From Thermoplasmata archaeon (GTDB lineage: Archaea > Thermoplasmatota > Thermoplasmata > Lutacidiplasmatales > UBA184): a stretch of 64,000 bases of DNA. The notes under the pieces were generated by a model, which was not told the origin of the DNA, did no database searches, and saw only the letters and a list, made by a program, of their open reading frames with translations. Made by a program: the position numbers and the translations under genes. Below are positions 10,248 to 64,000 of this stretch, one piece after another (position 1 is the first letter of the stretch; each line of letters starts with the position of its first letter). Where the stretch lies: the NCBI GenBank assembly GCA_049675585.1, contig JBAUAJ010000035.1, positions 4,198 to 68,197 of the forward strand, given 5' to 3'.

Positions 10248-10272
10248 CGACGGGCGAGAAACTCTTCCACCG

Positions 10273-10313
10273 GGGGACCGTCGGGTGGGACGGTCCCCTT
10301 CCCTCTTTTTTTT
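10273..10313 (+). terminator. Hairpin plus T8 tract downstream of the thermopsin-like gene
   Basis: GGGGACCGTC (10273-10282), loop GGGTGG, GACGGTCCCC (10289-10298), then TTCCCTC and TTTTTTTT (10306-10313). Confidence 0.5.
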
Positions 10314-10425
10314 GACCACCCCGATCGAATGACCGGGATCCTCCGGGCGGCTCCGTCATGATGCCCCCCCTCCGTTCTCTACTCCTCGGGGTAAGGCCTA
10401 TCCCACCGAGCGGGTTCGGGGGGCG

Positions 10426-10746: not shown

Positions 10747-10808
10747 TCGGGTGCCCCCGTTTCATCCACTGACCGGGCGCCCCTTCGCTCGGAGACCGAT
10801 CTCGCCGC

Positions 10809-11111
10809 GTGGCACAGTTCATCGTGCGGGCCTATCGAACGCCCCGGGGCTATCGGGTCGTCGTCGACGGAATGACCCATTTCGACGTCGAGCGGGAGGA
10901 GGAGATCGACCCGAAGGCCCGGGAGGCGATCCTCGAACGACTTCGGGCGTTCCTGCCCCCTCGCGCGCCCCCTCCGTTCGATCCGGATGCGCTTTCCACG
11001 CTTCTCTTCTCGATCGCCCTCGAGCCGGCGGGGTCGGGGGGAACGGCCGCGCCCTCACGGCCGTTTCATCGACTGAAAACGGGTGTGGCCACGAGAGGCC
11101 GTGACGGATAA
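10809..11111 (+). CDS. Hypothetical protein
   Basis: GTG start, 100 aa, high GC3. No recognisable motif. Confidence 0.4.
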   Translation: MAQFIVRAYRTPRGYRVVVDGMTHFDVEREEEIDPKAREAILERLRAFLPPRAPPPFDPDALSTLLFSIALEPAGSGGTAAPSRPFHRLKTGVATRGRDG

Positions 11112-11146
11112 CTCATAAACCCCCCCGGGGTGCCGAGCGACGCCGG

Positions 11147-18670: not shown

Positions 18671-18794
18671 CCCGCGAACGCCGTGCCGCTTTCCCATCAC
18701 GCGGGAGGGGGAATCACGGCGGAATATAACCGAACGACCGTCACGGGCGGGAGTCGGAGCGTGCGCCAAATACTCCCGGACGTTCGTAGGGTGA

Positions 18795-19217
18795 ATGTCG
18801 GAGAGCCCCCCCGGAAGTTTCCGCAAACTCACGCGCGCGGAGGAACGAGTGATCGTGCACAAAGGGACCGAAGCGCCGTTCACGGGGGAGTACGACCATC
18901 TGTCCTCCGCGGGCACCTACGTCTGCAAGCGGTGCGGCGCCCCGCTCTACGAATCGAACGCAAAGTTCGACTCGGGGTGCGGATGGCCCGCTTTCGATCG
19001 GGAGATCCCCGAGGCGGTCGCACATCTCCCGGACGCGGACGGATCCCGGACGGAGATCCAGTGTCGACGGTGCGGTGCCCACTTGGGTCACGTCTTCGTC
19101 GGAGAGCGCTTCACCGAAAGCAACGTTCGGCATTGCGTCAATTCGATCTCCCTCCTTTTCATCCCGCGGAGCGCCGCGGGTTCCGCTGCGGACGGGCATC
19201 CCCCCGGGGACCGATGA
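18795..19217 (+). CDS. msrB: Peptide-methionine (R)-S-oxide reductase
   Basis: [25 protein letters not shown] and [20 protein letters not shown] are classic MsrB/SelR motifs. Confidence 0.9.
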
Positions 19218-20668: not shown

Positions 20669-23600
20669 GTGGGCCTGAATCGTCCGGTCCTGCTGACAGC
20701 TATCGCGACGGTCGTCGTCCTTCTTCTGCTCCCAGGCTCCGGGTTCGGGGAGCTCTCGGCCCACTCTGCGAATTCGGCCCCCGCGCACGCCGCCATCGCC
20801 TCCTCGGGCACCTCCCCTGCGAATGCTCGAGTCGCCGAGATAGAACAATCCCTTCGCGCAGATCACATTCCCGCTTCCGACATTCATCTTCCGAATCTGC
20901 CCGGGGCGCACCCCGGGCGCGCCGGGATCGTCGGCCCATCGTACGAAGTCGCCCCGGCGCCGATGGGCATCGCGGACCTGGGCCTCATCAACCGCTCCGG
21001 CACCCTCGAGCCGACGGTCCTCAGCACTTCGAGCGTGGAAGGGACCGCGTCGATCGAGACCGCCCAGTCGGTCTACCTCGACGGCGACACTCCCGACATG
21101 TTCGGCGTTCAGATGAACGCCGTCGCGACCGGGGTCGAGCTCAGGGGACAGCCGGGATTCCAGTTCTGGGCGCAGGACTTCTTCAGCTACACGTCGAGCA
21201 CCGGTTCCCTCTCGTTCGGGGATAACCTGTGGAACTTCTCGAACGCGGCCGCCCTGTTCCCCGCGAACTCTCTCTACTCGCACGGACCGAACGGGACCCT
21301 CGTCGCTCCGATCTTCTACTACGCCACGGGACCGACCTTCACGGTGCACTATCCGTTCTCGGTGACGTTCGCGATCAACGCCGCGGTGATCGCCAAGCGC
21401 CCCGCGATCTTCTTCAACTACACGGTCGCCTCCCCGACGCTCAACACCTCGGGGTCGTTCGACGAGGTCGTCTTCAACTCCGCCCGGATACCGATACCAG
21501 TTCTAGCCGCTCCTCCCCCCCTCTTCCAGGCGAACGGGACCGGGTACGACCCGGTGGGACTCCCCAACGACCTCGAGCTGGTGCTGGTGGGTAACGGAAA
21601 TGGGGACACCACTTCGTTCGTCCGCCTGCACGCCGCGTTCTCGCTCTCCACCTGGAACTCGACGGCCGCGAAGTTCGAGCCCGTTGCGTCCGCCTACGAC
21701 GCCGGCTCGGACACGGGAGAATCCAGCAACGGCGTCGCGGTCTCGTACAACACGACCGGTGCGGGTGCCACGATCCCGCAAGCTGTGCTGCAGGTCGGGC
21801 CTTCGTTCCTTCACGGTCTTTGGAACTATTCGAACAACCCGGGATATCGGACCGTTTCGGCGAGCGTCCTCCCGGTCAACTCCTTTTTGTTCGTCTCCCC
21901 GGGGAACTCCCTCGGCCCGAACGTCGCCCAGTGGGTGCCGACCCTCGCGTTCACGACGGGACCCGAGATCATTCCATTCCCGAACGGAGGGAACTACTAC
22001 TTCGAGTGGATACTCAGCGACTACCGTCCGGTCCATCGCTCGCTCAATCCGGCGGCCAATGCGACGGCCACGGTCACCGCGACCCTGATCCGAAGCAACG
22101 CGCTCGGCGTCTACACTCCACTGATCGCCTGGGGGAACGCCCAGTTGCCGGCGATCGCCGCCTCCGGGACGGGCACCGTCGCCAGCCCGTACGTGCTGGA
22201 CGCGAACCAGAATCATCCGATCAGCGAGTTGTTCGGGGCGATGAACTTCTTTTTCTTCCCGGTATTTCCCGGCATACTGCTCATCGGCACGGACGCATCG
22301 GTCCGCGTCACCCCTTCGAGCCTCGCGATCACGTACTCGGCCGCCGTTGCCGCGAACCTCTCCACGGTGGGCCTGCCGTCCTCCAACCACCTGCAGATCG
22401 AGTTCTGGAACGTCGAGAACGCGACGCTCACGGGCGCCCCGGGGATCTCGGGTTGGCTTTCGTCGAACGTCGGGTTCAGCCCGCTCGCCGCGGTGCTCTT
22501 CTGGGGCGCAGACGGAAACCTGATCGCGGACAATACGTTCTACGACCAGGGGAACTCCCTCGCATTTTACGGGGGCTCGAAGAACACGGTGTGGGGCAAC
22601 ACCTTCCTCGACTCGACCGCACCGGCGACGAACCAGAGCGCGGTCGAGAACTCCGGGAACAACACGACCGGGATCTGGGAGTCGGAGTCCAACGACCTCG
22701 TCTACAACAACTACTTCGCCGTGCCCGCGCCGGCGTACACCCCGACGATCGACGCAGCCTCCTGCCAGATCGTCTGCCAGACCGTGGAGTACCGGGACGT
22801 CTGGAACGTCACCCGTGCGCCCGCGGACACCGTCCGTCAGGTCCTGGGCACGAACCTCTCGGGGAGTGTCATCGGCACAAGCTACCAGGGGGGCAACTAC
22901 TGGTCGAACTACGGGACCGCCTCGAACCCACTCGGTCGCCTTCCCTACAACGACAGCGGCCGGATCACCTTCGACGGGGATTACGTGCCGCTCGTTCCCT
23001 CGAAAGCGTACCCCGTCACGGTCGCCGAGCTCGGGCTCGCTCCGGGGGTCGTCTGGGGGGTCGACGTCGCCGGGATCGATTACCGCACGAACCAAACCCT
23101 GCTCACGATCTACGCCGCGAACGGAACGTACAACTACTCCGTGCTTGAGCCGGTCGGCTACACGGCCCCATCGACCGGCAACTTCACGATCAACGGGACC
23201 GGCACGGGAGTGTCGATCGACTTCACGGCGCTCGTGGCGCTCCTCTTCACCGAGACCGGGATCGTCGCGGGCTGGAGCTGGAACGTCACGATCGTATCCG
23301 AGAATACGACGGAGAACGGGACCGTGAACTCGACCAACGCTTCGATCGTCTTCGAGGTCGAGCCGGGCCTTTACAACTGGAGCGCGAGCTCGTACGGTTA
23401 CAACGCGACCCCTGTCAACGGGACGGTCGGCGTCGGCCCGGCGGGCACCGAAGTACCCCAGATCGTCTTTTCCCTCTATTCGATCGTCGTCTTCACCGAG
23501 ACCGGTCTGCGCGCCGGGACACCGTGGACGGTCGTGGTGACGGGCGGCACGAATCCCGAGCAGTTCACGAGCTTCGCGGCCCAGCTCAACCTCACGATCT

Positions 23601-24193
23601 TCGACCTGCCCTCGGGAGCGTACGCGTGGTCGGACGCGGTCGGCGGCTACACTGCGAACCCACCGAGCGGAACGGGAACCGGTGGAACCCCGGCCGCGAT
23701 CTCGCTGCAATACACGATCATCGATGGGACGTTCGAAGGTACCGTTTCGGTGGCGTCCGCCGAACTCTGGGTCGGTGGGAACGAAACCGCCCTCACGGAC
23801 GGGGCGTTCGCTGAGTCGCTCGTCCCCGGCGTGTACTCCGTAGTCGTGATCGCACCCGGTTACATTCAGTACGACAACAACGTCACGATCACGAGCGGCG
23901 CGACCACCTCTCTCCAGGTGCAACTCACCGCGATCCCCACGGCGCCCGCCTCGGGCCCGGCGGGGATCTCGTACGCCGGCTGGGGGGTCATTGGACTCCT
24001 CGCGGTCATCGCGGCGATCGGGCTCATCCTCGCCGCGCGGCGGCAGCGCCCCGGAGCCCCCCCGGCGCCGCCGACCCCCTACGCGGTAAAGCCGCCCTCG
24101 ACCCCGCCCACCCCGGTGCCGTCCACTCGACCCCCGTGGCAGGAAGACGAGACCGACACCTCCATCGACACGCCCGGGTCGGCGCGTCGCTGA
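20669..24193 (+). CDS. Membrane-anchored thermopsin-like peptidase (A5 type), paralog of 6831..10247
   Basis: GTG start with signal-like VLLTAIATVVVLLLLPGSGFG. APAPMGIADLGLI and FGVQMNAVATGVELRGQPGFQFWAQDFFSY. Modules LFTETGIVAGWSWNVTI and VFTETGLRAGTPWTVVV. C-terminal TM WGVIGLLAVIAAIGLILAA and a Pro-rich tail. Confidence 0.65.
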   Translation: MGLNRPVLLTAIATVVVLLLLPGSGFGELSAHSANSAPAHAAIASSGTSPANARVAEIEQSLRADHIPASDIHLPNLPGAHPGRAGIVGPSYEVAPAPMGIADLGLINRSGTLEPTVLSTSSVEGTASIETAQSVYLDGDTPDMFGVQMNAVATGVELRGQPGFQFWAQDFFSYTSSTGSLSFGDNLWNFSNAAALFPANSLYSHGPNGTLVAPIFYYATGPTFTVHYPFSVTFAINAAVIAKRPAIFFNYTVASPTLNTSGSFDEVVFNSARIPIPVLAAPPPLFQANGTGYDPVGLPNDLELVLVGNGNGDTTSFVRLHAAFSLSTWNSTAAKFEPVASAYDAGSDTGESSNGVAVSYNTTGAGATIPQAVLQVGPSFLHGLWNYSNNPGYRTVSASVLPVNSFLFVSPGNSLGPNVAQWVPTLAFTTGPEIIPFPNGGNYYFEWILSDYRPVHRSLNPAANATATVTATLIRSNALGVYTPLIAWGNAQLPAIAASGTGTVASPYVLDANQNHPISELFGAMNFFFFPVFPGILLIGTDASVRVTPSSLAITYSAAVAANLSTVGLPSSNHLQIEFWNVENATLTGAPGISGWLSSNVGFSPLAAVLFWGADGNLIADNTFYDQGNSLAFYGGSKNTVWGNTFLDSTAPATNQSAVENSGNNTTGIWESESNDLVYNNYFAVPAPAYTPTIDAASCQIVCQTVEYRDVWNVTRAPADTVRQVLGTNLSGSVIGTSYQGGNYWSNYGTASNPLGRLPYNDSGRITFDGDYVPLVPSKAYPVTVAELGLAPGVVWGVDVAGIDYRTNQTLLTIYAANGTYNYSVLEPVGYTAPSTGNFTINGTGTGVSIDFTALVALLFTETGIVAGWSWNVTIVSENTTENGTVNSTNASIVFEVEPGLYNWSASSYGYNATPVNGTVGVGPAGTEVPQIVFSLYSIVVFTETGLRAGTPWTVVVTGGTNPEQFTSFAAQLNLTIFDLPSGAYAWSDAVGGYTANPPSGTGTGGTPAAISLQYTIIDGTFEGTVSVASAELWVGGNETALTDGAFAESLVPGVYSVVVIAPGYIQYDNNVTITSGATTSLQVQLTAIPTAPASGPAGISYAGWGVIGLLAVIAAIGLILAARRQRPGAPPAPPTPYAVKPPSTPPTPVPSTRPPWQEDETDTSIDTPGSARR

Positions 24194-51072: not shown

Positions 51073-54000
51073 TCAGGGAGGTCGGTGGTAAGGGTCGTCC
51101 GTAATCGCCGAGGGGGAAGGATTCTCCGAGGAGCGACGCCGTCGCAACAGGACGACCCCGACGGCGGCACCGATGCCAATCAGGATGCCCAGGCCGATGC
51201 CACCGAAGAGCGGTTCGACCCAAGGATTCTGAGTCGGGAGGGCCTGAGCCGAGAAGGAAACCGCGACGGCCGACCCGCTTCCGACAATCGCGACGGAACC
51301 GAACACGCGCGCCGGGGAATAGGAAGACACTCCGAAGATGGAGTAGGTCGCGGTACCGTTCGCCACCTCGAACACGATGCTCGCCCCGGTGGAGTAGTTA
51401 ACGGTCGACCCAACCCATACGCTCCAATTCGCTCCCACCGGAAGACCCGACTCCGAGAAGGTGAGTGCATAGAGAACTTGCGAGAAGACGAGGGTCACCT
51501 CGATCACCGAGCTCCCCGCGACCAGGACGCTTCCCGTATGCGGCAGCGTCGTCTGATGCCAACCCCCAAGGTCGCCAATCTCGTAGGCGTAGGAGCCGTT
51601 CGGAACCGAGAAATCGACCGTCGGAGCAGTGGCGCTGAGGATTACGCCGCCCAAAGTGACCGTCCAGGAGGTCCCCTCAGGTAGGCCCGACTCGAGGAAT
51701 TCGACCGAGTACGTTACGGCGGTGTACTCGAGGGTAGGTAGGGTAACACCCGCCCCGTGGATCCCCACGGTGCCGGTGGCCGGCAGGGTCGACTGGCGCC
51801 ACCCGGCAACTCCGGAAATCGCATAGGGAAGCGTCCCGTTAGGCACGGAAAGAACGAGTGAATCGGTCCCGCCGGTGGTCGTGAGCGTCTCCTCCGTTCC
51901 CGCGAGGGTGATCCCGAAGGTCAGTCCGGCTGGGAGCCCGGACTCCTTGAATGTGATGCCGTAGGTCACGGCGGTGAAGTCGATCGTTACGAGCACACTC
52001 GTGGCGGCGACGTCCACGGCGCCGCTCGTCACGTTCTGCGAGTACCCCGCAACCCCCGGAATCGTGAACGGAAGTGTGCCGTTCGGCTCCGAGAACCAGA
52101 TGGTAGGCGTGCTCGATGTCTCGCGGACCGTGCCGACCTTGACGGACCAGCTCGTACCGCTCGCGAGGCCCGACTCGATGAACCGGACCGGGAAGGTGCT
52201 CTCGAAGAACTGCAGGTCGACTACATCGCCTATCCCAGAACCGTTGATCGGTTGCGAGTCCCCGTTCACCACGAGCCGGCCCGTGTAGGGCTCGGACGAT
52301 TGGTGCCAACCCGCGATCGGAAGAATCTGATAGAAGTACGAGCCGTTCGCGAGGTCCGTCCAGGTGAGAGTGTCGGTACCTCCGTCGGTGGTAATGCCCT
52401 GCGGAGTTCCCGCCACGAACGCCGAAAATTCAAGCCCCGCCGGGAGCCCGGATTCCGATATCGTTACAAGATATGCGACGGGGAAGAACTGGAGCGTCGG
52501 CTCGAAGAAGTAGTATGAGTTGTTGCTCGTTCCGTTGGCCGAGAGGTTCAACGTTCCGGAGAACGGTAGGGTCGACTGGTAGTATCCGCGGACAGGACTG
52601 ATCGAGTAATTGTAAACTCCGTGCGCCTCGTAGAACACGACCTCCCCGAAACTGCCGTTCCTCAGCAAGCCGTTGAGAGTGACGGACCAACTGGAGTTGA
52701 ACGGCAGCCCTGACTCCTGGAAGACGGCAACAACCTCGACTGAGAAGTTCATCGTAGGGAGCGCCACCGAGGAGCCGTTGACCAGAACCGTCCCGTTGAG
52801 CGGTACCGGAGCTTCCGTCCAGGCAGGGAATGGGACGCCGGATCGTTCGAGGCCGAGAATCGCATACGTGTAACTTCCGTTGAGCTCTAGGAACGTCATC
52901 GACCGCACGGTGGTGCTCAGATTGGTTTTTCCCAGCGAGGCCGACCAGCTCCACCCGGCCGGAACTCCCGATTCGGAGAAAGTTACATTGAAGAACGCGC
53001 CGTACCCGAGCACACTGACCGAGTCGATCTCCGAATCCATCGCGTAGAGGTACTGGTTGGACGGATCGTACTGGATCCCGAACGCGGGCGAAGGAAGCGG
53101 GACCGTCTCAAGAACTTCGGTCGAATTGATGACCGTTAGTCCGGAGTAATTCCCGGCCAACACCAGGTCCCCCGTGGCCGCGTCGAAGGCGGCCGCGTAT
53201 GGTCGGATCGGTATCGTCACGTTGCCTGCTAGGGCCGTCCCCTCGAGGATGGATACACGGGAGACAGAGGAGTTGCCGATGCCGGAGTTTGCCACGTAGA
53301 CCGCCCCGGAAATGGAGTCGAACACCGCCGGTCCTAGACCTGACCCGACTTCGACTGTGGCCACAACTGTGGTCCCGTTGAGCAGGGTGAGGTTTCCCGA
53401 TCCCTGGTCGACGACCACCATGTACCCATCGCTCGGATCGTACGTCAACGAGGTGGGAAAAGCGTCGACCGGGAGGGTCACTGTTCCGACTAGGGAAGTG
53501 CCGTTGATGATCGACACGAGGCTGACGTCCCCGGTCACCGTTGCGTAGACGTCCCCGTCCGCGGCGTCGTACCCGAGAGCATACGGGGCCCGGTTCGCCC
53601 CACCCACCAGCACGGAACCGGCGATGGTGGTGCCGTGGATGACCGTCACGTTTGATCCCCCGTAGTTGGCCACGTACACATCCCCGTCAGCCGGGTCGTA
53701 GAGAATAGACGTAGAGTAGGCCCCCGTCGACAGATTTCCGATGTCTTTCGTTCCGTTGATGATCGTCACGTTGTAGGAGTTCGAATCGTCTACGTAAACG
53801 AACCCATCCTGGGGGTCGAAGACCGCGCCGATCGGCCCCGAACCCACCTGAATTCTCTCGACTAGCGTCGTGTTGTTGAGCAGATGCACTCCGGTGCCCC
53901 CCGAATCCTCGACGTACACTTCTCCGTTCCTCGGGTCCACGAGAGCCGCCGTGGGAAACGAACCAACGGTGATGGTAGCCAGGACTCCGAGCTGACGCTC

Positions 54001-54261
54001 GAAGCCCGCGGGGTGTGCGTGGAGCCCCGGGAGGGACCCGGCCGATAGGATCCCCGCCGCCGTCGGCACCAACGATCTCGGTCCTAGGTTATCCCCTGGA
54101 GTGGCCGCCAGCGCAGCCGAGGGGCCAGCGACTCCCACGGTGGTCGCCTGAGGAGCGGCCCGCACCCCCCCTTGAGATGCGCTGAGCGAGCTGAACAGTA
54201 GGAGAAGGAGCAAGAACACCGATCCGAAAACGCGGCCGATTGGTCGTGCCGGGGTATGCAT
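51073..54261 (-). CDS. Membrane-anchored YVTN beta-propeller protein with about 7-8 FxESGLP modules
   Basis: Signal-like MHTPARPIGRVFGSVFLLLLLLFSSLSASQG. YVTN-like repeats. Modules VTFSESGVPAGWSWSASL, VFQESGLPFNSSWSVTL, ITFKESGLPAGLTFGITL and VEFLESGLPEGTSWTVTL. C-terminal TM GIGLGILIGIGAAVGVVLL. GGAGG lies 8 nt upstream of the ATG. GC3 is visibly lower than in the left-hand paralogs. Confidence 0.75.
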   Translation of the reverse strand: MHTPARPIGRVFGSVFLLLLLLFSSLSASQGGVRAAPQATTVGVAGPSAALAATPGDNLGPRSLVPTAAGILSAGSLPGLHAHPAGFERQLGVLATITVGSFPTAALVDPRNGEVYVEDSGGTGVHLLNNTTLVERIQVGSGPIGAVFDPQDGFVYVDDSNSYNVTIINGTKDIGNLSTGAYSTSILYDPADGDVYVANYGGSNVTVIHGTTIAGSVLVGGANRAPYALGYDAADGDVYATVTGDVSLVSIINGTSLVGTVTLPVDAFPTSLTYDPSDGYMVVVDQGSGNLTLLNGTTVVATVEVGSGLGPAVFDSISGAVYVANSGIGNSSVSRVSILEGTALAGNVTIPIRPYAAAFDAATGDLVLAGNYSGLTVINSTEVLETVPLPSPAFGIQYDPSNQYLYAMDSEIDSVSVLGYGAFFNVTFSESGVPAGWSWSASLGKTNLSTTVRSMTFLELNGSYTYAILGLERSGVPFPAWTEAPVPLNGTVLVNGSSVALPTMNFSVEVVAVFQESGLPFNSSWSVTLNGLLRNGSFGEVVFYEAHGVYNYSISPVRGYYQSTLPFSGTLNLSANGTSNNSYYFFEPTLQFFPVAYLVTISESGLPAGLEFSAFVAGTPQGITTDGGTDTLTWTDLANGSYFYQILPIAGWHQSSEPYTGRLVVNGDSQPINGSGIGDVVDLQFFESTFPVRFIESGLASGTSWSVKVGTVRETSSTPTIWFSEPNGTLPFTIPGVAGYSQNVTSGAVDVAATSVLVTIDFTAVTYGITFKESGLPAGLTFGITLAGTEETLTTTGGTDSLVLSVPNGTLPYAISGVAGWRQSTLPATGTVGIHGAGVTLPTLEYTAVTYSVEFLESGLPEGTSWTVTLGGVILSATAPTVDFSVPNGSYAYEIGDLGGWHQTTLPHTGSVLVAGSSVIEVTLVFSQVLYALTFSESGLPVGANWSVWVGSTVNYSTGASIVFEVANGTATYSIFGVSSYSPARVFGSVAIVGSGSAVAVSFSAQALPTQNPWVEPLFGGIGLGILIGIGAAVGVVLLRRRRSSENPSPSAITDDPYHRPP
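51290..52990 (-). repeat. In-frame tandem FxESGLP-module repeats
   Basis: Protein-level repeats from about residue 425 to 990 of the 1062-aa product, again mixing WSVTL-type and TTDGGTD/GWHQS-type units. Confidence 0.7.
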
Positions 54262-54402
54262 AGGGCCTCCGCGGTCCGATTCCTCGGTAGCGGATGAGCG
54301 CTTCGGCAGCGATCGAAACGTCGCGAAATGCTACCGGGGTGACTTGAATCCTTCCGGGCTCAGCTCCGTCCGGCTCTGATTGCCTTCGACGAAACGGTTC
54401 GA

Positions 54403-54756
54403 TCAGAGCCCGTGGCACTGGAAGTGCGAGGCGAGTCGCCGAAGGATTGTTGGAGACTCGTAGTCTGGGCCGAAATCCGCCAAGCGCTGCTTGGAGGATC
54501 GCGGCGACCAGTAGAGGGAGTCCTCGCAATGGACCCCGATTCCGACCGCGGACACGAACTCCCGAACCGCCCGCCCTTCCGATACCAGGGCGTCGGCGGC
54601 CCGTTGCGTAGTGTCGAGCATCTGTTCCCGGTTCCCGGGTGCCTCGGACGCAAGGACTTCCTCGTACAGTCGATGGACGCACCACGGACGATTCGGAGTC
54701 CCGTCCAGAGCGCGCTCAATCCGTGTCATCAGGGTCGCGGCGTCGGAACCGGGCAT
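54403..54756 (-). CDS. Hypothetical soluble protein
   Basis: 117 aa with protein-like composition, unlike the overlapping + strand ORF. Co-oriented with the flanking surface-protein genes. Confidence 0.45.
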   Translation of the reverse strand: MPGSDAATLMTRIERALDGTPNRPWCVHRLYEEVLASEAPGNREQMLDTTQRAADALVSEGRAVREFVSAVGIGVHCEDSLYWSPRSSKQRLADFGPDYESPTILRRLASHFQCHGL

Positions 54757-54876
54757 CGGCTACGAAGAATGGGGGCGACCCCACGATAATACCATCGGGA
54801 GGCCACCTCGAAGGGTTGCTTTCCTGGGGGGGTCGACCCGCCCCAGGCACTCATGGACCGCAGCCGCGGTCCAACA

Positions 54877-55485
54877 CTAGGGAATCTCCGCCCCTTCGTA
54901 GACCAGCTCGAACGCACCGGTACTCGGTGCTGAGCCATCGGACCCCGGAGCGTATCCGACCAGGATCGCGTCGTTGTAAGATTGTCCCGGCTGAAGCGTG
55001 ATGAAATTGATCGAGATGTCCGCGGCGGTTCCGCATGGGGTGGGAGACCCGTTGACACAGACGAGGCCGCTCGCGGCGATCCCCGACAGCGTGACGACAT
55101 CGATGCAGTTCGTCTGGCCGGCATTGCATATTCCGTTCAGCCCCGCGAACAAGAGACCCGCCGTGACATTGACCGGCGCCTCCCCCGTGTTCTGGATCTG
55201 AAGCGCCGCGTCGCAGTACTCTCCAAAGTAGATGTCCGAGATCTCGAGATTGACCGCGGTCTGAGCCGCGTTCAATCCGGTGAAACCGATCGACCCCGGA
55301 CCGGGTGCCCCGGTGCCTGTGTACGTGCACCCATGGCCCAAGAACGCTTCAATCTGCAAGTTGACCGATCCGGCGCTTACCGACCCTGAGACGGTATCGA
55401 CGGAAGTGAACGCGGCAAATCCAACTCCGGTCATCATCACCGCGGCGACCGTCGCCAAGACTCCGAAAACCCATCTGCTCGTCAC
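54877..55485 (-). CDS. Secreted protein with a TasA/camelysin-like (SipW-cognate type) N-terminal signal region
   Basis: From GTG 55485 the sequence reads VTSRWVFGVLATVAAVMMTGVGFAAFTSVDTVSGSVSAGSVNLQIE. This resembles the xAxF(S/T)(D/S)...AG(T/S)(L/V)xL pattern that follows the TM segment in TasA-family proteins. The listed start 55611 adds 42 aa of doubtful coding quality. Confidence 0.5.
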   Translation of the reverse strand: MTSRWVFGVLATVAAVMMTGVGFAAFTSVDTVSGSVSAGSVNLQIEAFLGHGCTYTGTGAPGPGSIGFTGLNAAQTAVNLEISDIYFGEYCDAALQIQNTGEAPVNVTAGLLFAGLNGICNAGQTNCIDVVTLSGIAASGLVCVNGSPTPCGTAADISINFITLQPGQSYNDAILVGYAPGSDGSAPSTGAFELVYEGAEIP

Positions 55486-55621
55486 GTGCGCCTCTGGAGA
55501 AATCTCTCCCCCGTGACACTCAGAACACGGTTCTCGTACAACGAGATTCGGAACTGTTGAGACGAGTGGTCTGGAGCAGTCGGTCCAATACTCCCGGCGG
55601 GGCGGGATCACTCCAATTTTC

Positions 55622-56179
55622 TCATCCGGGCCGATCTTCGAGGATGGGTTCCTTTCGGTAGACCCACCACATTCCGAGGCCTCCCCCGACTACTAGGAGG
55701 AGCCCGACCACGAGGATGCTTAGAGATTCATTCCAAACCAGCCGGCCCGAATCGACGGCCAGGAAAGTGAGCATCCCTGCACCAAGGACCAGAACGGCCG
55801 GGGTGTACGCTCTTTCACGCCGGAACGGTTCCGTAGCATCCGGCTCTGATTCACCCTGCGGTGCATATGGCGGGATCGGGCCCGTGCGGCCCCCTACCGA
55901 GTGCCGCAGTCGACGGCTGCCGTTCGACCGTTGCGATTTCGCCTCCGATTCGACCGCCCGGCGCGGTTTGGATAGGACCTCCCATCCCGTTTCCGCGCCG
56001 AACCTTCCTCGAACTGGCTCGACCCTGATCGAATCCGGGGAGGACACTCCGGTTTCGAAGGGTATCTCCGCGTCAGGTTCGGAAAACGGTCCGCTCACAG
56101 TGTGCGGAGCGAATGCCTCCAATTTATAGACGCGGAACCAGGGGAATTGCCACCTCCCGACGGGGCGGTTGAGATGCAA
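55622..56179 (-). CDS. Hypothetical protein with two C-terminal TM segments
   Basis: 185 aa. AVLVLGAGMLTFLAV and ILVVGLLLVVGGGLGMWWV. No family recognised. Confidence 0.4.
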   Translation of the reverse strand: MHLNRPVGRWQFPWFRVYKLEAFAPHTVSGPFSEPDAEIPFETGVSSPDSIRVEPVRGRFGAETGWEVLSKPRRAVESEAKSQRSNGSRRLRHSVGGRTGPIPPYAPQGESEPDATEPFRRERAYTPAVLVLGAGMLTFLAVDSGRLVWNESLSILVVGLLLVVGGGLGMWWVYRKEPILEDRPG

Positions 56180-56257
56180 GTAAAAGCTGCCCAGAGGGAT
56201 CTAAAAATTAGAGGGGCCCGCGCCGATAGCGCGAGCCCACGGAATCGATTCGACGTT

Positions 56258-57697
56258 TCAGGGCTTGGTGGTCGGCCCCTCAACATTCGAGGGCGCCGAA
56301 GGCGGAGAGGCCGGGGGACGGGCTCGGCCTGACGAGCGGCGCCAGAACAGAACGCCGCCGATCACTACGACCGCGGCAACCGCCGCGACCGCCACGAAAA
56401 GTAGCGGGAAGCCGCCGCCGTTCGAGGGCGAGGCAGTGATCGACTGGTACTGGGCCAGCGCGACGTTGACGGGCTCCGGCCCGGCCGTTACGTGGACCGT
56501 GGGGGAGAGCTCCCCGGGTTCGCTCGAGGGGAGAGAAGTGTTGCCGCCCTCGCCGACGCCGATGAAGCCTGACCCCGCACGGTAGTACGCGGACTCGGAG
56601 GACGCGTTCAGCCCGTTCGAAGAGGCCGTTTCGCGGACCGCGGGGATGGGCGCCGCCCCGTGCGCGATCGCGAGGGATGTCAGGCTGGAGATCCCACCGA
56701 ACAGATTGAGCGGGACGATGACCCAGCCGTCTTCCGCCGAGTAGTTCCCCGTAGAGAACGTGAGGTCGATGATCTGGGCCGTTACGACCGTTGGCGGGGC
56801 CGTGTAGTTGTCGTAGAGGGTGATCGGCCCGAGGTCAGTCCCGTTCAGCCCGAGGGTTCCCGAAGGGCTGGTCGCCCCGTGGTACCAGTGCGACACCGTC
56901 TCGGGGGGCATGCCGGGCTTGCTCAAGGTGAACGTTGAGCCGTTCGAGTAGGAGCCGTGGGCCACGTACGCTGCGCTCGAGTTCCACAAATCGCCCGCCG
57001 CGGGGTCCATCGGGACCAGGGAGAGGGGGCTGGCGAACGAGATCGAGGACGTTTCGGAGCCGCCGACATCGAAGGAGGCGCTGACCGATTCTGATTTCAC
57101 GTCCGACAGCGGAATGTGCGCGGCGTAAGAGCCGCTGAAGTTCAACGCGGCTTTCGACCAGGAGTTCATGATCGCCCACGACGGCACGCTACCGGTCGGT
57201 CCGGCGCTCGCGTTCGTCTGATCGACCGTGCTATTCGTGATGTTGGTGTAGCCGTTCGAGGACTCCGATCCCGAAACCGAGACGTCGAACGAGGTTACTT
57301 GACAGGGAATCGTTCCGGTGCCGTTGGTGCAGGTCGAGATCTTGATCGAGGCCGAGATACCAATAGCCGCCTGAACCTCGATCTGGACTTGGGTCGCGGA
57401 GATGTTCGTGAGCGTGTAGATGACCGCCCAGGTCACAGAGTAGTGCCAGCTCAGGCTCAGGTTACCCACGGGCGTGGCGTCCGGCGCAAAGCAGGTGGCG
57501 TTCGAACAGCTGAAGCTCGAAGAAACCGACCCGCCGAATGCTCGCTGAACCGGAGCTCCGGAGGTATCTGTAATCGTTCGTGCCGGATGGATTGCGGCCG
57601 CCGCCCCGACACCGGCTTGGGCAAAGCCAAGGGTCAGCATTCCGACGACCAGGAGGACCAAGGCGACAGTCTGGCACTTACTGTACAACGGCTTCAC
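56258..57697 (-). CDS. Sequon-rich surface protein with a signal peptide and a C-terminal TM anchor
   Basis: MKPLYSKCQTVALVLLVVGMLTLGFAQAGVGA. Many N-x-S/T sequons. C-terminal GGGFPLLFVAVAAVAAVVVIGGVLFWRRSSGR plus a Pro-rich tail. Confidence 0.6.
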   Translation of the reverse strand: MKPLYSKCQTVALVLLVVGMLTLGFAQAGVGAAAAIHPARTITDTSGAPVQRAFGGSVSSSFSCSNATCFAPDATPVGNLSLSWHYSVTWAVIYTLTNISATQVQIEVQAAIGISASIKISTCTNGTGTIPCQVTSFDVSVSGSESSNGYTNITNSTVDQTNASAGPTGSVPSWAIMNSWSKAALNFSGSYAAHIPLSDVKSESVSASFDVGGSETSSISFASPLSLVPMDPAAGDLWNSSAAYVAHGSYSNGSTFTLSKPGMPPETVSHWYHGATSPSGTLGLNGTDLGPITLYDNYTAPPTVVTAQIIDLTFSTGNYSAEDGWVIVPLNLFGGISSLTSLAIAHGAAPIPAVRETASSNGLNASSESAYYRAGSGFIGVGEGGNTSLPSSEPGELSPTVHVTAGPEPVNVALAQYQSITASPSNGGGFPLLFVAVAAVAAVVVIGGVLFWRRSSGRARPPASPPSAPSNVEGPTTKP

Positions 57698-58138: not shown

Positions 58139-58221
58139 AGTTATAATCTAACTCAGCCGTTTGCGCACGTAAAAAATATCGACAATGGGTTCTTAAATAT
58201 AACCGGAGTAAACAACTCCGG
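58139..58221 (+). promoter_or_regulatory. AT-rich TATA-like boxes and a perfect hairpin upstream of the giant ORF
   Basis: AGTTATAATCTAA (58139-58151), GTAAAAAATATC (58169-58180) and CTTAAATATAA (58192-58202). Hairpin CCGGAG-TAAACAA-CTCCGG at 58203-58221. Confidence 0.35.
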
Positions 58222-58439: not shown

Positions 58440-61400
58440 ATGTCGGGAAGGACCGCTAGTTTGGTCGTGTTTTGCATATTTCTGCTCATTTCTACTGCGC
58501 TGGTGCCGAACGCAGCGGCCTCCGGAGGTGGAGGATCGGGTGGAGGTGGCTCATTTGAAGTGTCAAATAACACAACGGGCCCCATTTTTTACCCTTATTC
58601 CATTCCCGGATCGCTCTTCCCTCTGCCAACGAGCCTCACCCTCTTCTCTCAGGCGAGCCAAACTGACCAAAATCATGGCTCGTCGAACGGCTCAGTCTCC
58701 TCTGTCGCCGCCGGGGTCGCTTCCACTCCGTTAGGTGCAGATGTATCTAGCTTCGCCGTCATTGTGGCCCTGACGAACTCCTCGAGCGCCTCCGAGACTG
58801 GCGTCCTCGTCTTCTCGACCTCCACTTACAGTGCGCAGGACGCGACCCAGATTGTTGATTCGGGGTCATGTGGGCCAAATTGCGCTGACACACCCATTAC
58901 TTGGTCGCCATGGGTCCGAATTGCAAGTTACACTCATCCAATCACGAGTGAGGGAATCGCTTCATCGGGCACTTCTCTAGTCGCGGCTGCAACCTCAAGT
59001 GGCATTACTTACCTCTACAATTGGTCGGGAGTCGCTGGGAACTGGGCAAGCTTTGGACCTACCATTGCGGGCCGATTCGCTTCCATTGCAATGAATTCTC
59101 AAGAAGTGGTCGTTGCGTCGGTATCTTCCGATTCCGTCGAGCTGACAACGATCTCCTCAAGTGGGGCCCTGATCGGCCAATCCATGATATCACCCTCGGG
59201 AGAAGGAGCAACGGGCATCCTCAGCGCGGGCGTAGCCCTTACCGCGTACTACGCAACCTATCTTGAATCAGTGGCGTTTTCCGTCTCCGGGCTAGACAAG
59301 GTTGAGTTCTCTGATAGTACTACCGGAACTGGGTTCAGCTACCCGGTCCCCATCGCAAATTTCTCCGTGAGCGCCTTGGCTACCCCTATCTCCGAATTCG
59401 GAAGAGCGTCCTACGTTGACGCCCACGGAATCCCGGGCCAGCTCGCGTTAACTGCCGTGGGAAACCAGCTATTTCTACTGTACACCACGAACCAGTCCGG
59501 CCAAACCATCCCGCTTACTGAGTCGAGCGGATCTAACGGCAGTTCTTGGCACGGGCCGTACATGAACGGCCCTCTCAACGGAACGGCTCTTAACCCGGCC
59601 GTTACAATAGGGCCAACCGGACTTGTCTACGCGGCTTGGCAGAACCCCGATTACGGTCTGGGAGCCGTGGAGGTGGCGACCTACTTTTCCAACGGGATGC
59701 CCCTGATTGCTCCAGAGACGCTAGCGCCCTCGTCCGGTAACTGGAGCTCACCCACCGCGGGGCCAGCTATCTCCGTTGACGGGCTCGCACGCCCCCTGGT
59801 GCTTTGGCCGGCGTGGTCGATGAACTTGACGGGTTCTATATCGTATACGGGGGCCTACCTGGATCCTAGAGATGCGCTGGAATTGCTTGAGAACTCGACT
59901 GTGGTTTCCCTAGGCTCTGCCGATCTCGTAGGAGGCTCCAAAACCGGGTCGACGGCGCTTTCCTCACTCGCGACCAACGTCACCCGAGAAACGAGCCGAG
60001 CCGAGGCGAATCTTACTTCCGTTGGGCTCTGCAACGCTCAGCGAGCCACCGCACTCTTTCTCTATCAGAATCTGACCCACGTTCCCCTTTCGGTCGAATC
60101 CGACTCAGGGACAACTTGTTCGAGTCGTTTCGACCCTAATCTTGCAGCCTCACAAGTGTCAGAATCACAGGGACAAGACTCGCCGAACACTTACATGGCC
60201 GTATACCTAGACTGGGCTCTCGAGGGTGAGGGGGTCACAGTTACGGTTTCTCCTCTGAGCCTGGTGGCGCAATTTAGTCCGTATACTGAGGTCACTCCTG
60301 CCACGACCATTCCGAATCCCGTCTCGCACACCGAGACTGTTTCCTCGAAAACTGTATCTGCAACCGTGACGCCGTCACCCTACAGCCCGACGTCGTACGA
60401 ACTCGGAGTCTCGGATTCACTCCCCACTTGGACAAGCTTCTCGTCTGCCCGGTGCTCAATGTCGGGAGGGGGCTGGGGGGTTGTAGTCATCAGCAAGACG
60501 ACTTCTGTTACTAGCACCTGGGCTGACGTCTCGATCAACAACGGCACAAATCACAACATCTCGGGAACTACCGCCTACCCGTCCGTATGGGTTTACAATC
60601 TACCCGCATATCGATCATTCTCTTGGACCGAACGGTTCGGTGCACGAACCGGTGAGGTGGAGACAACCACTGACTCATGTGATCACTCTACAACAACCCA
60701 GACTATTTCCCCAGTGACACTGGGACCGTCTTCGATCACTCAGTTTGTGCTGACCGGATCCTTCGCGACGACACTCTCCATCACGTATGTCGGGAATTTC
60801 CTCACTGCATCGTACAACGGATTACACACTGAGGCACGAATCTCGACTGGCTATGGGATGACATTGCCGTCCACGGCACAAGAGACACTATCGAATTCAA
60901 CGGGTGTCCAGTACTGGAATTCAACCACATTCGGAACCAGCCAGTTCAATGAGTTTCCCAAATACTCACCTGCCGGTGTCGGATACACTTTCCGAATCAC
61001 GAGCCTGAGCCGTCCCGGGTCAAACAGCCCGGCAGGATCTCCTGCCTTTGCATACAGCGTGGCCGGTGTTAGCCCGGCGGAATCCTCGCGGGCCACCTGC
61101 GGTTTCACATTGACGAGGAATCTACCCAATGTTTCAAGCCCGTCCACAGGGCCGTTTTGGAACACTGAAAGTACCTCCATCGACGCGTCTTGGTACTCCA
61201 ACCAGAGCGCATCAGGGTACATCACCTACCACGCGATTGGGTCTCCTATTTCTACGACCATCTCGGGAATCACGCCGATCAGCGCTGGGCCGAATCGATG
61301 GAACTACACAGTTGAGTTGCACGGTCTTCAGCCCTGGGTCTCCTACGCTGCAAACCTCGGAGTTTCTTGGACGCAGGGTTGCCTAACGAACCAGGATGGG

Positions 61401-64000
61401 GTGACAACCCAGGTCGATTTCGGAGGGAGCGACCCTCCATTTGTTCCCGAGCCCTCCGCAGGATCTGCTCCCAGCATGGACAAGAATTGGGCTTCCGAGC
61501 AGGACCTCAGTTACAATTCATTGACTCGTGCCGGCGGTGGAGTCGAAATCAGCTGGAACATTCCGATATCCGGACCTTTCGTAAGCGGCAGTGTGAAAAT
61601 TTGGAATGCTACTCAGGCATTCTCCTACTCACTTAATTCGACCACTATAGAAGGGACTAAGGGAAGTGGTCTGATAGATCTCTTCCCGACGCTAACTTCG
61701 AATCATAAGTACTCGTTCACTGTTACAGCGGTATACGACAAACCCTTCTACTGTCCCCCTCCGGGTGGCTGTGTGAAACCCTCCAGCATCACTTCCTCAA
61801 CCAAGAAATTTACCTACCACTTCGATCAGAGCAAGGACGGACTGACCAATGCGGAGAAGCAAACAGGTTGGTACGTACCCCTCGCTTCGGGTCCTGACCT
61901 CGTTACTCCCAGCCCGTCGAGCTTTTCAACGAATGGGTTGGCTAACGATTACCTGGAGGACGTCTATGGCCTCAATCCGAATACAGTCGACTCCGCTGGG
62001 AGCGGAATGCTCGATCTGTGGAACCTAACCTTTGCTCTTGGCACAAATTCCACCAATCCAGGGGTACCTGAACCGAGACTCAACGGTGTGGTCGATAAGA
62101 GTTTCTTCGCGCTGTCTTCAGAGGAAGGCACGCGATTCGACCCGTTTTCCGGAAAACCCTCACCAAACGACACGACTTGGCCGGGAACCCCCATTAAGAC
62201 AGGCACGAACGACCAGGGCATCTCGGACATCCTGTGCGTCAGGTCTCATTGTTTGGCCAATTCGTCTTATTCTGCTGAAGTACTTTGGTCTCGAACCGCC
62301 CTACTAAAACTTCTCAATACGACAGGAATAGCCGGACCCGAAGGGGCAGCCTCCAATGGAGGCTCCCTGCGTGGGATTCTCGGTACGTACGGAACGCAAC
62401 GGACTCTAACTCTCTGGGGCAAACTTTCGTGGGGTGCGGATCCATACGTGGTGTCGACACCTGGAGATGGAATCCCGGACGGTGCGAGTATAGATCCGGC
62501 ACATGAACTCGGTCTCGAAACATATTTTGAGAGAGCTCCTCCACAACCGCCAGCTCTCGGAGGCTACGGTATTTTGCTGAACCCGAACGACACTTCCGGG
62601 GGATGCGGAAATCTTCCCGACGGCTCAGGTATCGCCGTACGGCCATCCATACCTGACGCTGTGGTAAGTGGTAGGGTCGGGCTCGATAACTACACCGCAC
62701 AATTCACTGCAGGTGGCTCAGGTTGTCCCGTAAGTGGAGAGTCCTACATTACAACTCTTCCGGTTAACCAAGAGCTCATCTCTGAGCCGGTTTCCCTTGG
62801 ACTGGTCGCTAATATTTCCACGAGCCGCACGCCAGAACTGGAGAGTTTGGCGATCAACGGTTGTCGAACCGAAGTGAACCTGACTGTCAACATGCTCGCT
62901 CCAGCTCCAGTCAGCCAGTCGGGGACTGCGTACTACTCTTATTGGGGAAATTCAAACGGTCAGTGCTCGGGGAGTATGGGGGCAAGGACTGCGATAGACC
63001 TCGGGATTCGCCTTGTTTCTGTAGGGGTCAAATCGCCCACATACCTTTGGTTGCCCGATGGTAATCAGACCCTCACCCAACTTCCGGCGGGCTTGCAACA
63101 CTTCGTTGGCGAGCAGGATTTCGTGGAGGTCGAGGTGAACTACAACTATCCCGGGTGCGGTTTCGCCTTCTTCGCATCGAACGAATGCAGAGGCGTGGCG
63201 AGCAGCGATATTCCTTTTCCAGAGTCGCCCAGAGGCACTTATAATGTAACGTTCGCAGCAGGAGTTACCAATCTTCTCATTCCGAGAGTTGGATTCTTCG
63301 CCTCCGATTTTGGTCAAGCGATCTTCAAGGACGGGTCAATCAGGTACACTGGCCCTAACACACTTCCCATCCTCGGCTCCGGCGGCGTTACCCCTCCGAA
63401 TTTTGGTGGAGCGAATGGTATGCGAAACCTTGCTTGCTATTGGCAGAACCGAACTATCGAACCAGCAAGTGGCGGGGCACTCTGCAGCACTGAATTGGGA
63501 GTGGGGTCGAAATCTCCCGCAATAGTTTCAGTCCTCACTGCGACGCAGAGTGTATCAGGCAACACTGGGGGATTGACAAGCGGCGCTACGGTCGAGCCCG
63601 CGTCAGCCGCGGGTGCATCCGTCCAAGCCATAGTGACCTTGACACTCAATCTATCGGGGAACAATTTCAAGGACGCAGACCTCCTTCTGGCCTCGCTCCT
63701 TGATAACTCGACCGGCGGAGTGAACGGATCGTTCGAGAATATCACGGGTCAGACCGCCACCCTAGGATTCTCGAGCGCCGTTCTATCCACTCTAGCAAAT
63801 AATGCCGAGGTTAGTGATGGGATTTGGGGCGTTCCCGTAAGCCGTGCCACGCCTCCTCAGCAATCAAAAGGAGCATTGGAATCTGCTTGGAACACGGTCA
63901 GCGGGATCGGAACGTTCGTCGTCAAGTCAGAATCGGTTATAGTCGGTTACATATGGTCTGCAACGAAGGCAGGATTGGACTTCTTAGGCGAAATCGGGAA
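58440..64000 (+). CDS. Giant secreted S/T/N-rich protein, 3'-truncated by the window end (over 1,853 codons). Not in the supplied ORF track
   Basis: I translated frame 0 by hand line by line and found no stop from 58269 to 64000. ATG 58440 is followed by MSGRTASLVVFCIFLLISTALVPNAAASGGGGSGGGGS (signal-like). An alternative start is ATG 58269. Two FN3-like modules, TSP3-like acidic motifs and about 30 or more N-x-S/T sequons by eye. GC3 is near 50%, against about 85-90% in the rest of the window (eye estimates). Confidence 0.8.
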   Translation, partial: MSGRTASLVVFCIFLLISTALVPNAAASGGGGSGGGGSFEVSNNTTGPIFYPYSIPGSLFPLPTSLTLFSQASQTDQNHGSSNGSVSSVAAGVASTPLGADVSSFAVIVALTNSSSASETGVLVFSTSTYSAQDATQIVDSGSCGPNCADTPITWSPWVRIASYTHPITSEGIASSGTSLVAAATSSGITYLYNWSGVAGNWASFGPTIAGRFASIAMNSQEVVVASVSSDSVELTTISSSGALIGQSMISPSGEGATGILSAGVALTAYYATYLESVAFSVSGLDKVEFSDSTTGTGFSYPVPIANFSVSALATPISEFGRASYVDAHGIPGQLALTAVGNQLFLLYTTNQSGQTIPLTESSGSNGSSWHGPYMNGPLNGTALNPAVTIGPTGLVYAAWQNPDYGLGAVEVATYFSNGMPLIAPETLAPSSGNWSSPTAGPAISVDGLARPLVLWPAWSMNLTGSISYTGAYLDPRDALELLENSTVVSLGSADLVGGSKTGSTALSSLATNVTRETSRAEANLTSVGLCNAQRATALFLYQNLTHVPLSVESDSGTTCSSRFDPNLAASQVSESQGQDSPNTYMAVYLDWALEGEGVTVTVSPLSLVAQFSPYTEVTPATTIPNPVSHTETVSSKTVSATVTPSPYSPTSYELGVSDSLPTWTSFSSARCSMSGGGWGVVVISKTTSVTSTWADVSINNGTNHNISGTTAYPSVWVYNLPAYRSFSWTERFGARTGEVETTTDSCDHSTTTQTISPVTLGPSSITQFVLTGSFATTLSITYVGNFLTASYNGLHTEARISTGYGMTLPSTAQETLSNSTGVQYWNSTTFGTSQFNEFPKYSPAGVGYTFRITSLSRPGSNSPAGSPAFAYSVAGVSPAESSRATCGFTLTRNLPNVSSPSTGPFWNTESTSIDASWYSNQSASGYITYHAIGSPISTTISGITPISAGPNRWNYTVELHGLQPWVSYAANLGVSWTQGCLTNQDGVTTQVDFGGSDPPFVPEPSAGSAPSMDKNWASEQDLSYNSLTRAGGGVEISWNIPISGPFVSGSVKIWNATQAFSYSLNSTTIEGTKGSGLIDLFPTLTSNHKYSFTVTAVYDKPFYCPPPGGCVKPSSITSSTKKFTYHFDQSKDGLTNAEKQTGWYVPLASGPDLVTPSPSSFSTNGLANDYLEDVYGLNPNTVDSAGSGMLDLWNLTFALGTNSTNPGVPEPRLNGVVDKSFFALSSEEGTRFDPFSGKPSPNDTTWPGTPIKTGTNDQGISDILCVRSHCLANSSYSAEVLWSRTALLKLLNTTGIAGPEGAASNGGSLRGILGTYGTQRTLTLWGKLSWGADPYVVSTPGDGIPDGASIDPAHELGLETYFERAPPQPPALGGYGILLNPNDTSGGCGNLPDGSGIAVRPSIPDAVVSGRVGLDNYTAQFTAGGSGCPVSGESYITTLPVNQELISEPVSLGLVANISTSRTPELESLAINGCRTEVNLTVNMLAPAPVSQSGTAYYSYWGNSNGQCSGSMGARTAIDLGIRLVSVGVKSPTYLWLPDGNQTLTQLPAGLQHFVGEQDFVEVEVNYNYPGCGFAFFASNECRGVASSDIPFPESPRGTYNVTFAAGVTNLLIPRVGFFASDFGQAIFKDGSIRYTGPNTLPILGSGGVTPPNFGGANGMRNLACYWQNRTIEPASGGALCSTELGVGSKSPAIVSVLTATQSVSGNTGGLTSGATVEPASAAGASVQAIVTLTLNLSGNNFKDADLLLASLLDNSTGGVNGSFENITGQTATLGFSSAVLSTLANNAEVSDGIWGVPVSRATPPQQSKGALESAWNTVSGIGTFVVKSESVIVGYIWSATKAGLDFLGEIG

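Follow-up and report, generated by a model that had tools for sequence, protein, structure and literature searches.

A TasA/AbpX-like gene, probably an orphan copy, in a surface-protein-rich region of a Thermoplasmata chromosome

Fibres made of TasA-superfamily subunits have been described in bacteria and in archaea. The loci of one archaeal fibre protein, AbpX, contain a signal peptidase I with ten transmembrane (TM) segments, a DUF5305 protein, minor subunits, tip proteins and regulators; a calcium-responsive clade of AbpX proteins is marked by an acidic residue at mature position 4, ∼15% Asp/Glu and a pI of ∼4 (bioRxiv 10.64898/2026.01.04.697558). The Tafi loci carry a regulator (TafB), a peptidase (TafD), a DUF5305 protein (TafG), pilins, a variable tip (TafC) and an anchor (TafF) (PMC12337348). 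TasA homologues in Thermoplasmatota have already been noted, in the work on the archaeal bundling pili, ABP/AbpA (PMC9245690). Here we consider a 64 000-nucleotide (nt) stretch of a Thermoplasmata archaeon (contig JBAUAJ010000035.1 of assembly GCA_049675585.1), referred to below as the window. An initial annotation of it had singled out five minus-strand genes between positions 51073 and 57697, here called g1 to g5, which face a giant open reading frame (ORF), and had proposed them as a cell-surface assembly locus with no described archaeal equivalent; given the ABP, Tafi and AbpX systems, the latter claim falls.

All five minus-strand ORFs exist as annotated; four of them are real genes showing the annotated features, and g2 is doubtful. 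We think it probable, though well short of certain, that the region is no dedicated five-gene machine but a variable part, rich in surface proteins, of the chromosome of an uncultured, acidophilic member of the Thermoplasmata, and that one of the genes, g3, codes for an orphan AbpX-like fibre subunit.

The TasA/AbpX-like gene g3

The gene g3 (54877..55485, minus strand) starts with GTG at 55485 and codes for a TasA-superfamily (AbpX-like) secreted subunit of 202 amino acids (aa), as judged from profile and model. Its ORF reaches 55611; in a codon-usage log-odds model (scores per codon, trained on the Pfam-supported genes of the window) the 42-codon upstream extension scored as non-coding (−0.42 per codon), and g3 itself scored +0.25/+0.44. 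A word-indexed search returned only four relatives of g3. With the alignment of these four, an exhaustive HMMER search found 58 representatives among 1.84 billion proteins, most of them 136–216 aa long; all matches in the genome collection came from metagenome-assembled genomes (MAGs) named ‘Thermoplasmata archaeon’.

Members of the family share a signal and N-terminus with the consensus M..KW..G..A..AV.GVGFAAFT..ATVNG.A.AG..L, as well as an NL.PGD.C...N.GT.P motif and four to six cysteines, and the motif of the N-terminal strand is the most conserved part. When a profile of 46 members was compared with the Protein Data Bank (PDB), the best matches were to AbpX (9sj2_C, E 5.1e-10; 9rhp_A, E 4.6e-8), with TasA (5of1/8aur) at E ∼0.1. 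The profile alignment paired the N-terminus of AbpX, from W2 onward, with the FT..ATVNG strand of the family; the donor strand of AbpX is W2-I12 (bioRxiv 10.64898/2026.01.04.697558). In g3 the corresponding N-terminus, ...GVGFA|AFTSVDTVSG..., is conserved across the family and has an aromatic residue at mature position 2. The N-terminus of TasA reads WA|AFND. The Pfam model of TasA itself, PF12389 (Peptidase_M73/TasA), was weakly matched by 17 of the 46 members (best E 2.4e-4).

A structure model of g3 was computed with AlphaFold2 from the 46-sequence alignment, which we adopted in place of the four-sequence alignment (pLDDT, the model's per-residue confidence, 52.6; not used). With a pLDDT of 92.1, the model has a signal helix, residues 23–42 left unpacked and a nine-strand all-beta core. 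On the minus strand, the predicted signal peptide (residues 1–24, cleavage expected at GFA|AFT) corresponds to 55485–55414; the putative donor strand (residues 25–42), unpacked in the model and aligned to AbpX, to 55413–55360; and the modelled beta-sandwich core (residues 43–202) to 55359–54880. In a Foldseek search of the PDB the best match of the model was the TasA fibre (8aur_A; probability 0.94, E 5.4e-3, TM-score 0.37). Judged by family profile and predicted fold, g3 is a member of the TasA superfamily, closest to AbpX, which bears out the TasA-like label given to it in the initial annotation; a conserved, apparently unpacked N-terminal strand aligned to that of AbpX is the pattern expected of donor-strand subunits.

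The mature protein contains no Lys or Arg among its 178 residues, and the family median of Lys plus Arg is also zero. At mature position 4, g3 has Ser, and 44 of the 46 family members have some non-acidic residue; Asp and Glu together make up ∼8% of g3, with a family median of 6%. In many members an N-G-T sequon falls within the predicted donor strand.

One could then picture the following route. The g3 product would be exported by Sec, and signal peptidase I would cut it after GFA24; by analogy with TasA and AbpX, this cut would free A25-F26-T27... as a donor strand. The freed strand, AFTSVDTVSGSVSAGSV, would slot into the following subunit's beta-sandwich (donor-strand complementation), and the resulting chain would build an extracellular fibre or matrix.

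Fibre cassettes in related genomes and the gene g1

Apart from g3, no ORF of the window matched the family's hidden Markov model, so that there is no second TasA-like gene in it. In relatives such genes come in higher numbers: genomes of the g3 family have two or more TasA-like genes each, with up to four found in one. A genome locus scan with a 10-sequence alignment gave 13 loci (L005–L017), which together with L003 and L004 make up the independent TasA-like loci. In three of them (L014, L016 and L017), genes for a signal peptidase I fusion and a DUF5305 protein (PF17231) stand directly before the TasA-like genes. The cassette order in these related Thermoplasmata begins with a winged helix-turn-helix (wHTH) regulator, followed by a multi-TM signal peptidase I, DUF5305 and then one to three TasA-like genes: three in tandem in both L014 and L017, one in L016; the regulator, of the Sso10a type, lies upstream in L017. 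The peptidases (∼450–520 aa) are fusions of an Rce1/CPBP multi-TM domain to an archaeal signal peptidase I with SipW-like similarity, and they score 79–87 bits with TIGR02228 (cut-off 51.85). This architecture matches that of the published AbpX and Tafi loci.

The backbone around the L017 cassette is that of the window: GH15 (75% identity), adh_short, Phosphodiest (74%) and PIN. The cassette itself (5892–13033 of that locus) sits between adh_short and Phosphodiest, and the corresponding slot is filled by ComA in the window.

Canonical and orphan copies may occur in one genome. The MAG SMAG_U15176 has three TasA-like loci, one canonical (L014) and two with orphan copies (L008 and L011); another, SMAG_U15158, has four copies. 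No signal peptidase (S26/S24) and no DUF5305 gene was found within the 64-kb window, which confirms the earlier remark that a SipW-like signal peptidase is missing from it, and the pair of peptidase and DUF5305 was not found near the other orphan-type loci, L003–L013. We would therefore read g3 as an orphan paralogue, its product being processed in trans or by a housekeeping peptidase; the canonical cassette of this genome, if it exists, would sit outside the window.

Among the neighbours of g3, g1 alone shows signs of being linked to a TasA-like gene. The gene g1 (56258..57697, minus strand) codes for a 479-aa type-I membrane glycoprotein of an uncharacterised Thermoplasmata family. In agreement with the initial annotation we saw an N-terminal hydrophobic signal, richness in N-X-S/T sequons (15 versus 4.8 expected) and a C-terminal TM segment (residues 432–450 by hydropathy; more widely, residues 431–453, 56407–56339 on the minus strand). 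Between signal and TM lies an ectodomain, ∼400 aa long, which has conserved Cys and the 15 sequons; the cytoplasmic tail that follows is rich in Pro. The family comprises 55 homologue clusters of 456–552 aa, in which ectodomain, TM segment and Pro-rich tail are conserved. Comparison of g1 with PDB and Pfam gave nothing beyond TM noise, and none of the 55 clusters had a Pfam match. Two identities proposed for g1 were rejected, those of a degenerate DUF5305 protein (hhalign probability 0.5%) and of a TasA-like tip (24% against the TasA-like profile, confined to the signal peptide). Some homologues (the C-termini of P0066, P0082 and P0104) end with a cytoplasmic, zinc-ribbon-like motif, CPxCGQPxTYIAQYxRxYCY, after the Pro-rich tail; it is absent from the g1 of the window.

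The closest orthologues of g1 (62–67% identity) have a same-strand TasA-like gene downstream in all three of the evaluable lineages, at a distance of 0.77 kb in the window, 0.5 kb in L054 and 5.6 kb in L018/L019/L023, where PurT and other genes intervene. The other flanks of the three loci differ. In L054 a DDE_3/HTH transposase (5847–6905) lies immediately upstream of the pair, consistent with rearrangement there.

One could speculate that g1 and g3 form a two-gene module, in which g1, in function like TafF or TapA/AbpB, would anchor the g3 fibre in the membrane or nucleate its growth, with g4, g5 and the giant ORF as bystanders. The downstream TasA-like gene in all three evaluable closest-orthologue genomes, despite differing flanks, speaks for it, as does the existence of variable anchor and tip proteins in the published Tafi and AbpX loci. 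Yet the partner TasA-like genes share only 38–39% identity with g3, whose best match in that genome is another gene, and the closest homologues of g3 (58–64%; L003 and L004) have no g1 nearby; nor was g1 present in the contexts of the TasA-like proteins P0006 and P0007. A TasA-like neighbour was seen in none of the ∼30 loci with more distant g1 homologues, and the 31 metagenome loci around g1 homologues had no conserved neighbour set. Furthermore, hhalign found no TasA-like, donor-strand or DUF5305-like element in g1 (and no TasA-like region in g2, g5 or the giant ORF); PurT and another gene stand between the two partners in L019; and, as the three genomes are relatives of one another, the adjacency may reflect inherited synteny. 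Linkage of g1 to TasA-like genes is restricted to a narrow clade, and g1 might be a partner or anchor of such a subunit; as an account of this locus, the two-gene module seems unlikely to us. More doubtful still is its extended version, in which the g1 family would be an unrecognised anchor or nucleator paired with an acid-adapted, Lys/Arg-free, calcium-independent branch of AbpX-like proteins; in Thermoplasmata of soil and peat, the two genes would constitute a minimal fibre system that needs no peptidase/DUF5305 cassette.

Several observations weigh against g3 being an orphan fibre subunit with chance neighbours. The adjacency of g1 homologues and TasA-like genes in three lineages argues that the neighbours are not all coincidental. 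The g3 protein itself had no Pfam match and stayed below the NCBIfam cut-off (TIGR04088, the SipW-cognate signal: E 0.04, 14.1 bits versus a cut-off of 19). In absolute terms the Foldseek match to TasA is weak, E 5.4e-3 and TM-score 0.37 being values for a full-length model, signal helix included, which may account for the low score. Two marks of AbpX, the acidic position 4 and ∼15% Asp/Glu, are absent; since these acidic features are not conserved, the assembly trigger must differ, or g3 may not polymerise. Processing in trans by a distant cassette is an assumption made from 64 kb of the genome.

Some of these points would suit a secreted beta-sandwich that does not polymerise. It might be a monomer, serving as a surface protein or an adhesive one, or else the minor or tip subunit of a fibre whose main building block comes from a gene elsewhere. 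Such a role would fit a gene present in single copy in the window with neither peptidase nor minor subunits, a family in which the calcium-binding signature of AbpX is missing, genomes with several divergent TasA-like paralogues and the weak structural match to TasA. Against it stands the N-terminal strand, which is the most conserved part of the family, aligns to the donor strand of AbpX and is unpacked in a high-confidence monomer model; we regard a non-polymerising g3 as improbable and keep to the reading of g3 as an orphan fibre subunit.

The other neighbours and the five-gene set

In the initial annotation the five genes, together with the giant ORF taken as an adhesin, were seen as one system. 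We examined 16 TasA-like, 35 g1 and two g4 loci for co-occurrence. Across the 16 other TasA-like loci, within available flanks, g1, g2, g4 and the giant ORF had no homologue; other TasA-like paralogues adjoin unrelated genes, such as those for an epimerase, a CitMHS transporter and a PIN-domain protein. The only co-linear copies of the set were L001, a contig with the same locus as the window, and L002 (ENA ERZ25039587 contig_146292), both of the same strain. A lack of joint conservation in related genomes had been named in the initial annotation as grounds for refutation, and on that count its proposal is largely refuted. We rejected L002 as an independent relative with mosaic protein divergence: it comes from the same strain (98.97% nt identity; 52 indels in 11.2 kb), its apparent protein divergence being due to assembly indels that frameshift and fragment genes. 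An assembly of this kind is a trap for conservation analyses, as the indels imitate strong protein divergence.

The gene g4 (54403..54756, minus strand) codes for a conserved small cytoplasmic Cys/His protein of 117 aa, without a TM segment and annotated as soluble. Its family has 105 homologue clusters at 50–81% identity, with invariant C26, H28, C77, H111 and C114 in the motifs PWCVHRLYEE, IGVHCED and HFQCHGL. The invariant Cys and His suggest metal binding; comparison of g4 with PDB and Pfam gave no match. For homologues of g4, as for those of g1, every name supplied by a source says Thermoplasmata. The statement that none of the small and medium-sized proteins belongs to a nameable family is right as far as curated libraries go; it misses two sizeable families, so far uncharacterised, that of g1 and that of g4. 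In L022 (MAG MFD00144_bin23) g4 stands beside the same backbone genes as in the window (PIN, Phosphodiest with 91% identity, ComA with 89%, adh_short), and g1, g3 and g5 are not there. Thus, g4 is part of the chromosomal backbone, unrelated to the surface genes. A TATA-like box, GGTATTATCG, lies at 54784..54793 (minus strand), ∼30 nt upstream of the g4 ATG; its GTATTA is kept in the window and in L021/L022, the flanking sequence is not, and a box conserved in this way suggests that g4 has its own promoter.

The gene g5 (51073..54261, minus strand) codes for a 1062-aa anchored surface glycoprotein with a signal peptide and 34 sequons versus nine expected. On the minus strand there follow a YVTN-type beta-propeller (approximately residues 95–420, 53979–53002, identified by weak propeller matches), seven FxESGLP stalk modules (residues 422–1012, 52998–51226, by module positions) and a C-terminal TM segment (51201–51133, by hydropathy), which agrees with its first description. 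The module, of ∼85 aa and with no Pfam model, looks like a lineage-specific glycosylated stalk module; it occurs in six large exported proteins of the window, joined to a sedolisin, thermopsin or propeller head, the others being a sedolisin (92–5515), two thermopsins (6780–10247 and 20669–24193) and propeller proteins (11147–13288 and 15803–18916). With six such proteins per 64 kb, anchored glycoproteins are background, not signal, and g5 is one of a large paralogous propeller-plus-stalk set. Repeat proteins like g5 were seen in 7 of the 16 TasA-like loci; the idea that they are conserved partners of TasA-like genes was rejected, since this window alone has the module in six proteins. Where an anchored glycoprotein turns up roughly every 10 kb, a shared orientation of exported proteins is only weak evidence of a system.

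The giant ORF (58440..64000, plus strand, continuing beyond the window) codes for a predicted secreted, Ser/Thr-rich protein, 2166 aa long on L001 (2644–9144). It opens after a stop at 58209, with ATG 58440 as the most likely start. It had no Pfam match and no homologue in any fetched locus, including the other TasA-like or g1 loci. Its composition is atypical, with GC ∼0.54–0.57 and GC at third codon positions (GC3) of 0.58 versus 0.75–0.93 for other genes. GC content declines stepwise along the window, from ∼0.68 (46–48 kb) through 0.62 (50–58 kb) to 0.55 (58–64 kb). Together, the composition of the giant ORF and this gradient suggest a recently acquired or hypervariable surface island. The spacer that the giant ORF shares with the five genes was found as described; g1 and the giant ORF diverge across 742 bp with 54% GC. 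An AT-rich stretch in this spacer, AAAAAATATCG...TTCTTAAATATAACC at 58170–58205, ∼240 nt upstream of the giant-ORF ATG, could be a promoter of the giant ORF with a long leader.

The remaining ORF, g2 (55622..56179, minus strand), has 185 codons, a TTG start and two adjacent C-terminal hydrophobic segments. The two segments are there as annotated; the coding status is what fails. Its codon score is −0.03/−0.21 (−0.16/−0.30 in the first 120 codons and +0.25 in the last 64) versus +0.21 to +0.44 for g1, g3 and g5 and +0.13 for g4, and its GC3 is 0.67 versus 0.75–0.93 in real genes. It is uncalled on L001 and called as 142 aa on the frameshifted L002. No homologue was found in any fetched locus, there is no counterpart in the gap between g1 homologue and TasA-like gene of L054, and exact look-ups of g2, with all start variants, in a collection of 15 billion proteins found it absent. 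A shorter g2 spanning just the two TM segments was rejected, as there is no start codon between residues 46 and 135. Probably g2 is not a gene, and it may be a non-coding spacer between g1 and g3. Short gaps within the set, another claim of the initial annotation, hold for three intervals of 120–141 nt; if g2 is not a gene, the g1–g3 gap is 772 bp.

Some short elements bear on transcription and translation. An element TAATTTTTAGA at 56200..56210 (minus strand), 48–58 nt after the g1 stop and 21–31 nt before the g2 TTG, could, as we read it, serve either g1 as an oligo-T terminator or g2 as a TATA-like box. Sequence reading also pointed to ATTCAATTT, 16–24 nt before the g1 start. Motifs resembling Shine–Dalgarno sites are GGAGG at 54266–54270, 5–9 nt before the g5 start, and AGAGG, 6–10 nt before the g3 start. 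None of these features is proof of an operon, and the g4 box speaks against one common transcription unit.

That all five genes and the giant adhesin form one novel, operon-transcribed archaeal fibre or matrix assembly locus is very improbable: the common orientation, the three gaps of 120–141 nt, the export signals of four products and the GGAGG and AGAGG motifs, compatible with internal translation starts on longer transcripts, are outweighed by a set kept together in no independent genome, by the cytoplasmic g4, a conserved gene of the backbone whose TATA-like box is conserved too, by g5-type proteins about once per 10 kb of the window, by a doubtful g2 and an oligo-T run after g1, by a giant ORF of foreign composition with no co-occurrence and by the lack in the window of accessory genes typical of fibre loci.

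Beyond these genes, the window codes for two proteases of the thermopsin family and one pro-kumamolisin/sedolisin as well as for several YVTN propeller proteins, a content that would fit an acidophilic lifestyle of the host. Scans of the window for tRNA genes and Rfam families were empty.

Comparison with described fibre systems

The TasA/AbpX superfamily of matrix fibres is extended by g3 to an uncultured, high-GC, acidophile-like lineage of Thermoplasmata. Distinctive for g3 are its acid-soil Thermoplasmata host, a mature protein free of Lys and Arg, and the absence of the calcium signature of AbpX; if subunits of the g3 type polymerise, their assembly trigger would differ from that of AbpX, which bears on the question of matrix fibres at low pH.

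AbpX of Pyrodictium abyssi (Sleutel et al.; PDB 9sj2 and 9rhp), the best match of the g3-family profile, is like g3 a small secreted beta-sandwich of ∼160–180 mature residues; mature position 2 is aromatic in both, and the N-terminal donor strand of AbpX aligns with the putative one of g3. Cysteines occur in both, as a proximal predicted pair in AbpX and as four to six residues in the g3 family. The likeness extends to the loci of relatives: in L014, L016 and L017, as in AbpX loci, tandem subunits go with DUF5305 and a multi-TM signal peptidase I, and L017 also has a regulator. The window, in contrast, has none of these accessory genes. The proteins differ too: g3 has no acidic residue at position 4, and Asp plus Glu amount to ∼6–8% versus ∼15%, with essentially no Lys or Arg in the mature proteins. 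The hosts also differ, an acid-soil Thermoplasmata lineage here versus Thermoproteota, Bacillota and Chloroflexota in the AbpX cluster (bioRxiv 10.64898/2026.01.04.697558).

With the tapA-sipW-tasA system of Bacillus subtilis (TasA fibre, PDB 8aur/5of1), g3 shares a signal and N-terminus resembling the SipW type, the top structural match and a predicted donor-strand polymer. The sequence relation is marginal (E ∼0.1), however; g3 is shorter than TasA, its host is an archaeon without peptidoglycan, and there is no SipW and no recognisable TapA homologue near g3.

The archaeal bundling pili (AbpA/AbpB of Pyrobaculum; PMC9245690) and the haloarchaeal Tafi fibres (TafA–G; PMC12337348) are donor-strand fibres of the same superfamily as g3. 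The g3 profile had no detectable match to the AbpA or TafE chains in the PDB, and unlike these systems the window contains no AbpB-, TafB-, TafD- or TafG-like genes. On the other hand, ABP loci resemble the window in having no dedicated peptidase and in coding for TM proteins of unknown role (PMC9245690), and the variable anchor TafF or tip TafC of the Tafi system represents the role that one might assign to g1 (PMC12337348).

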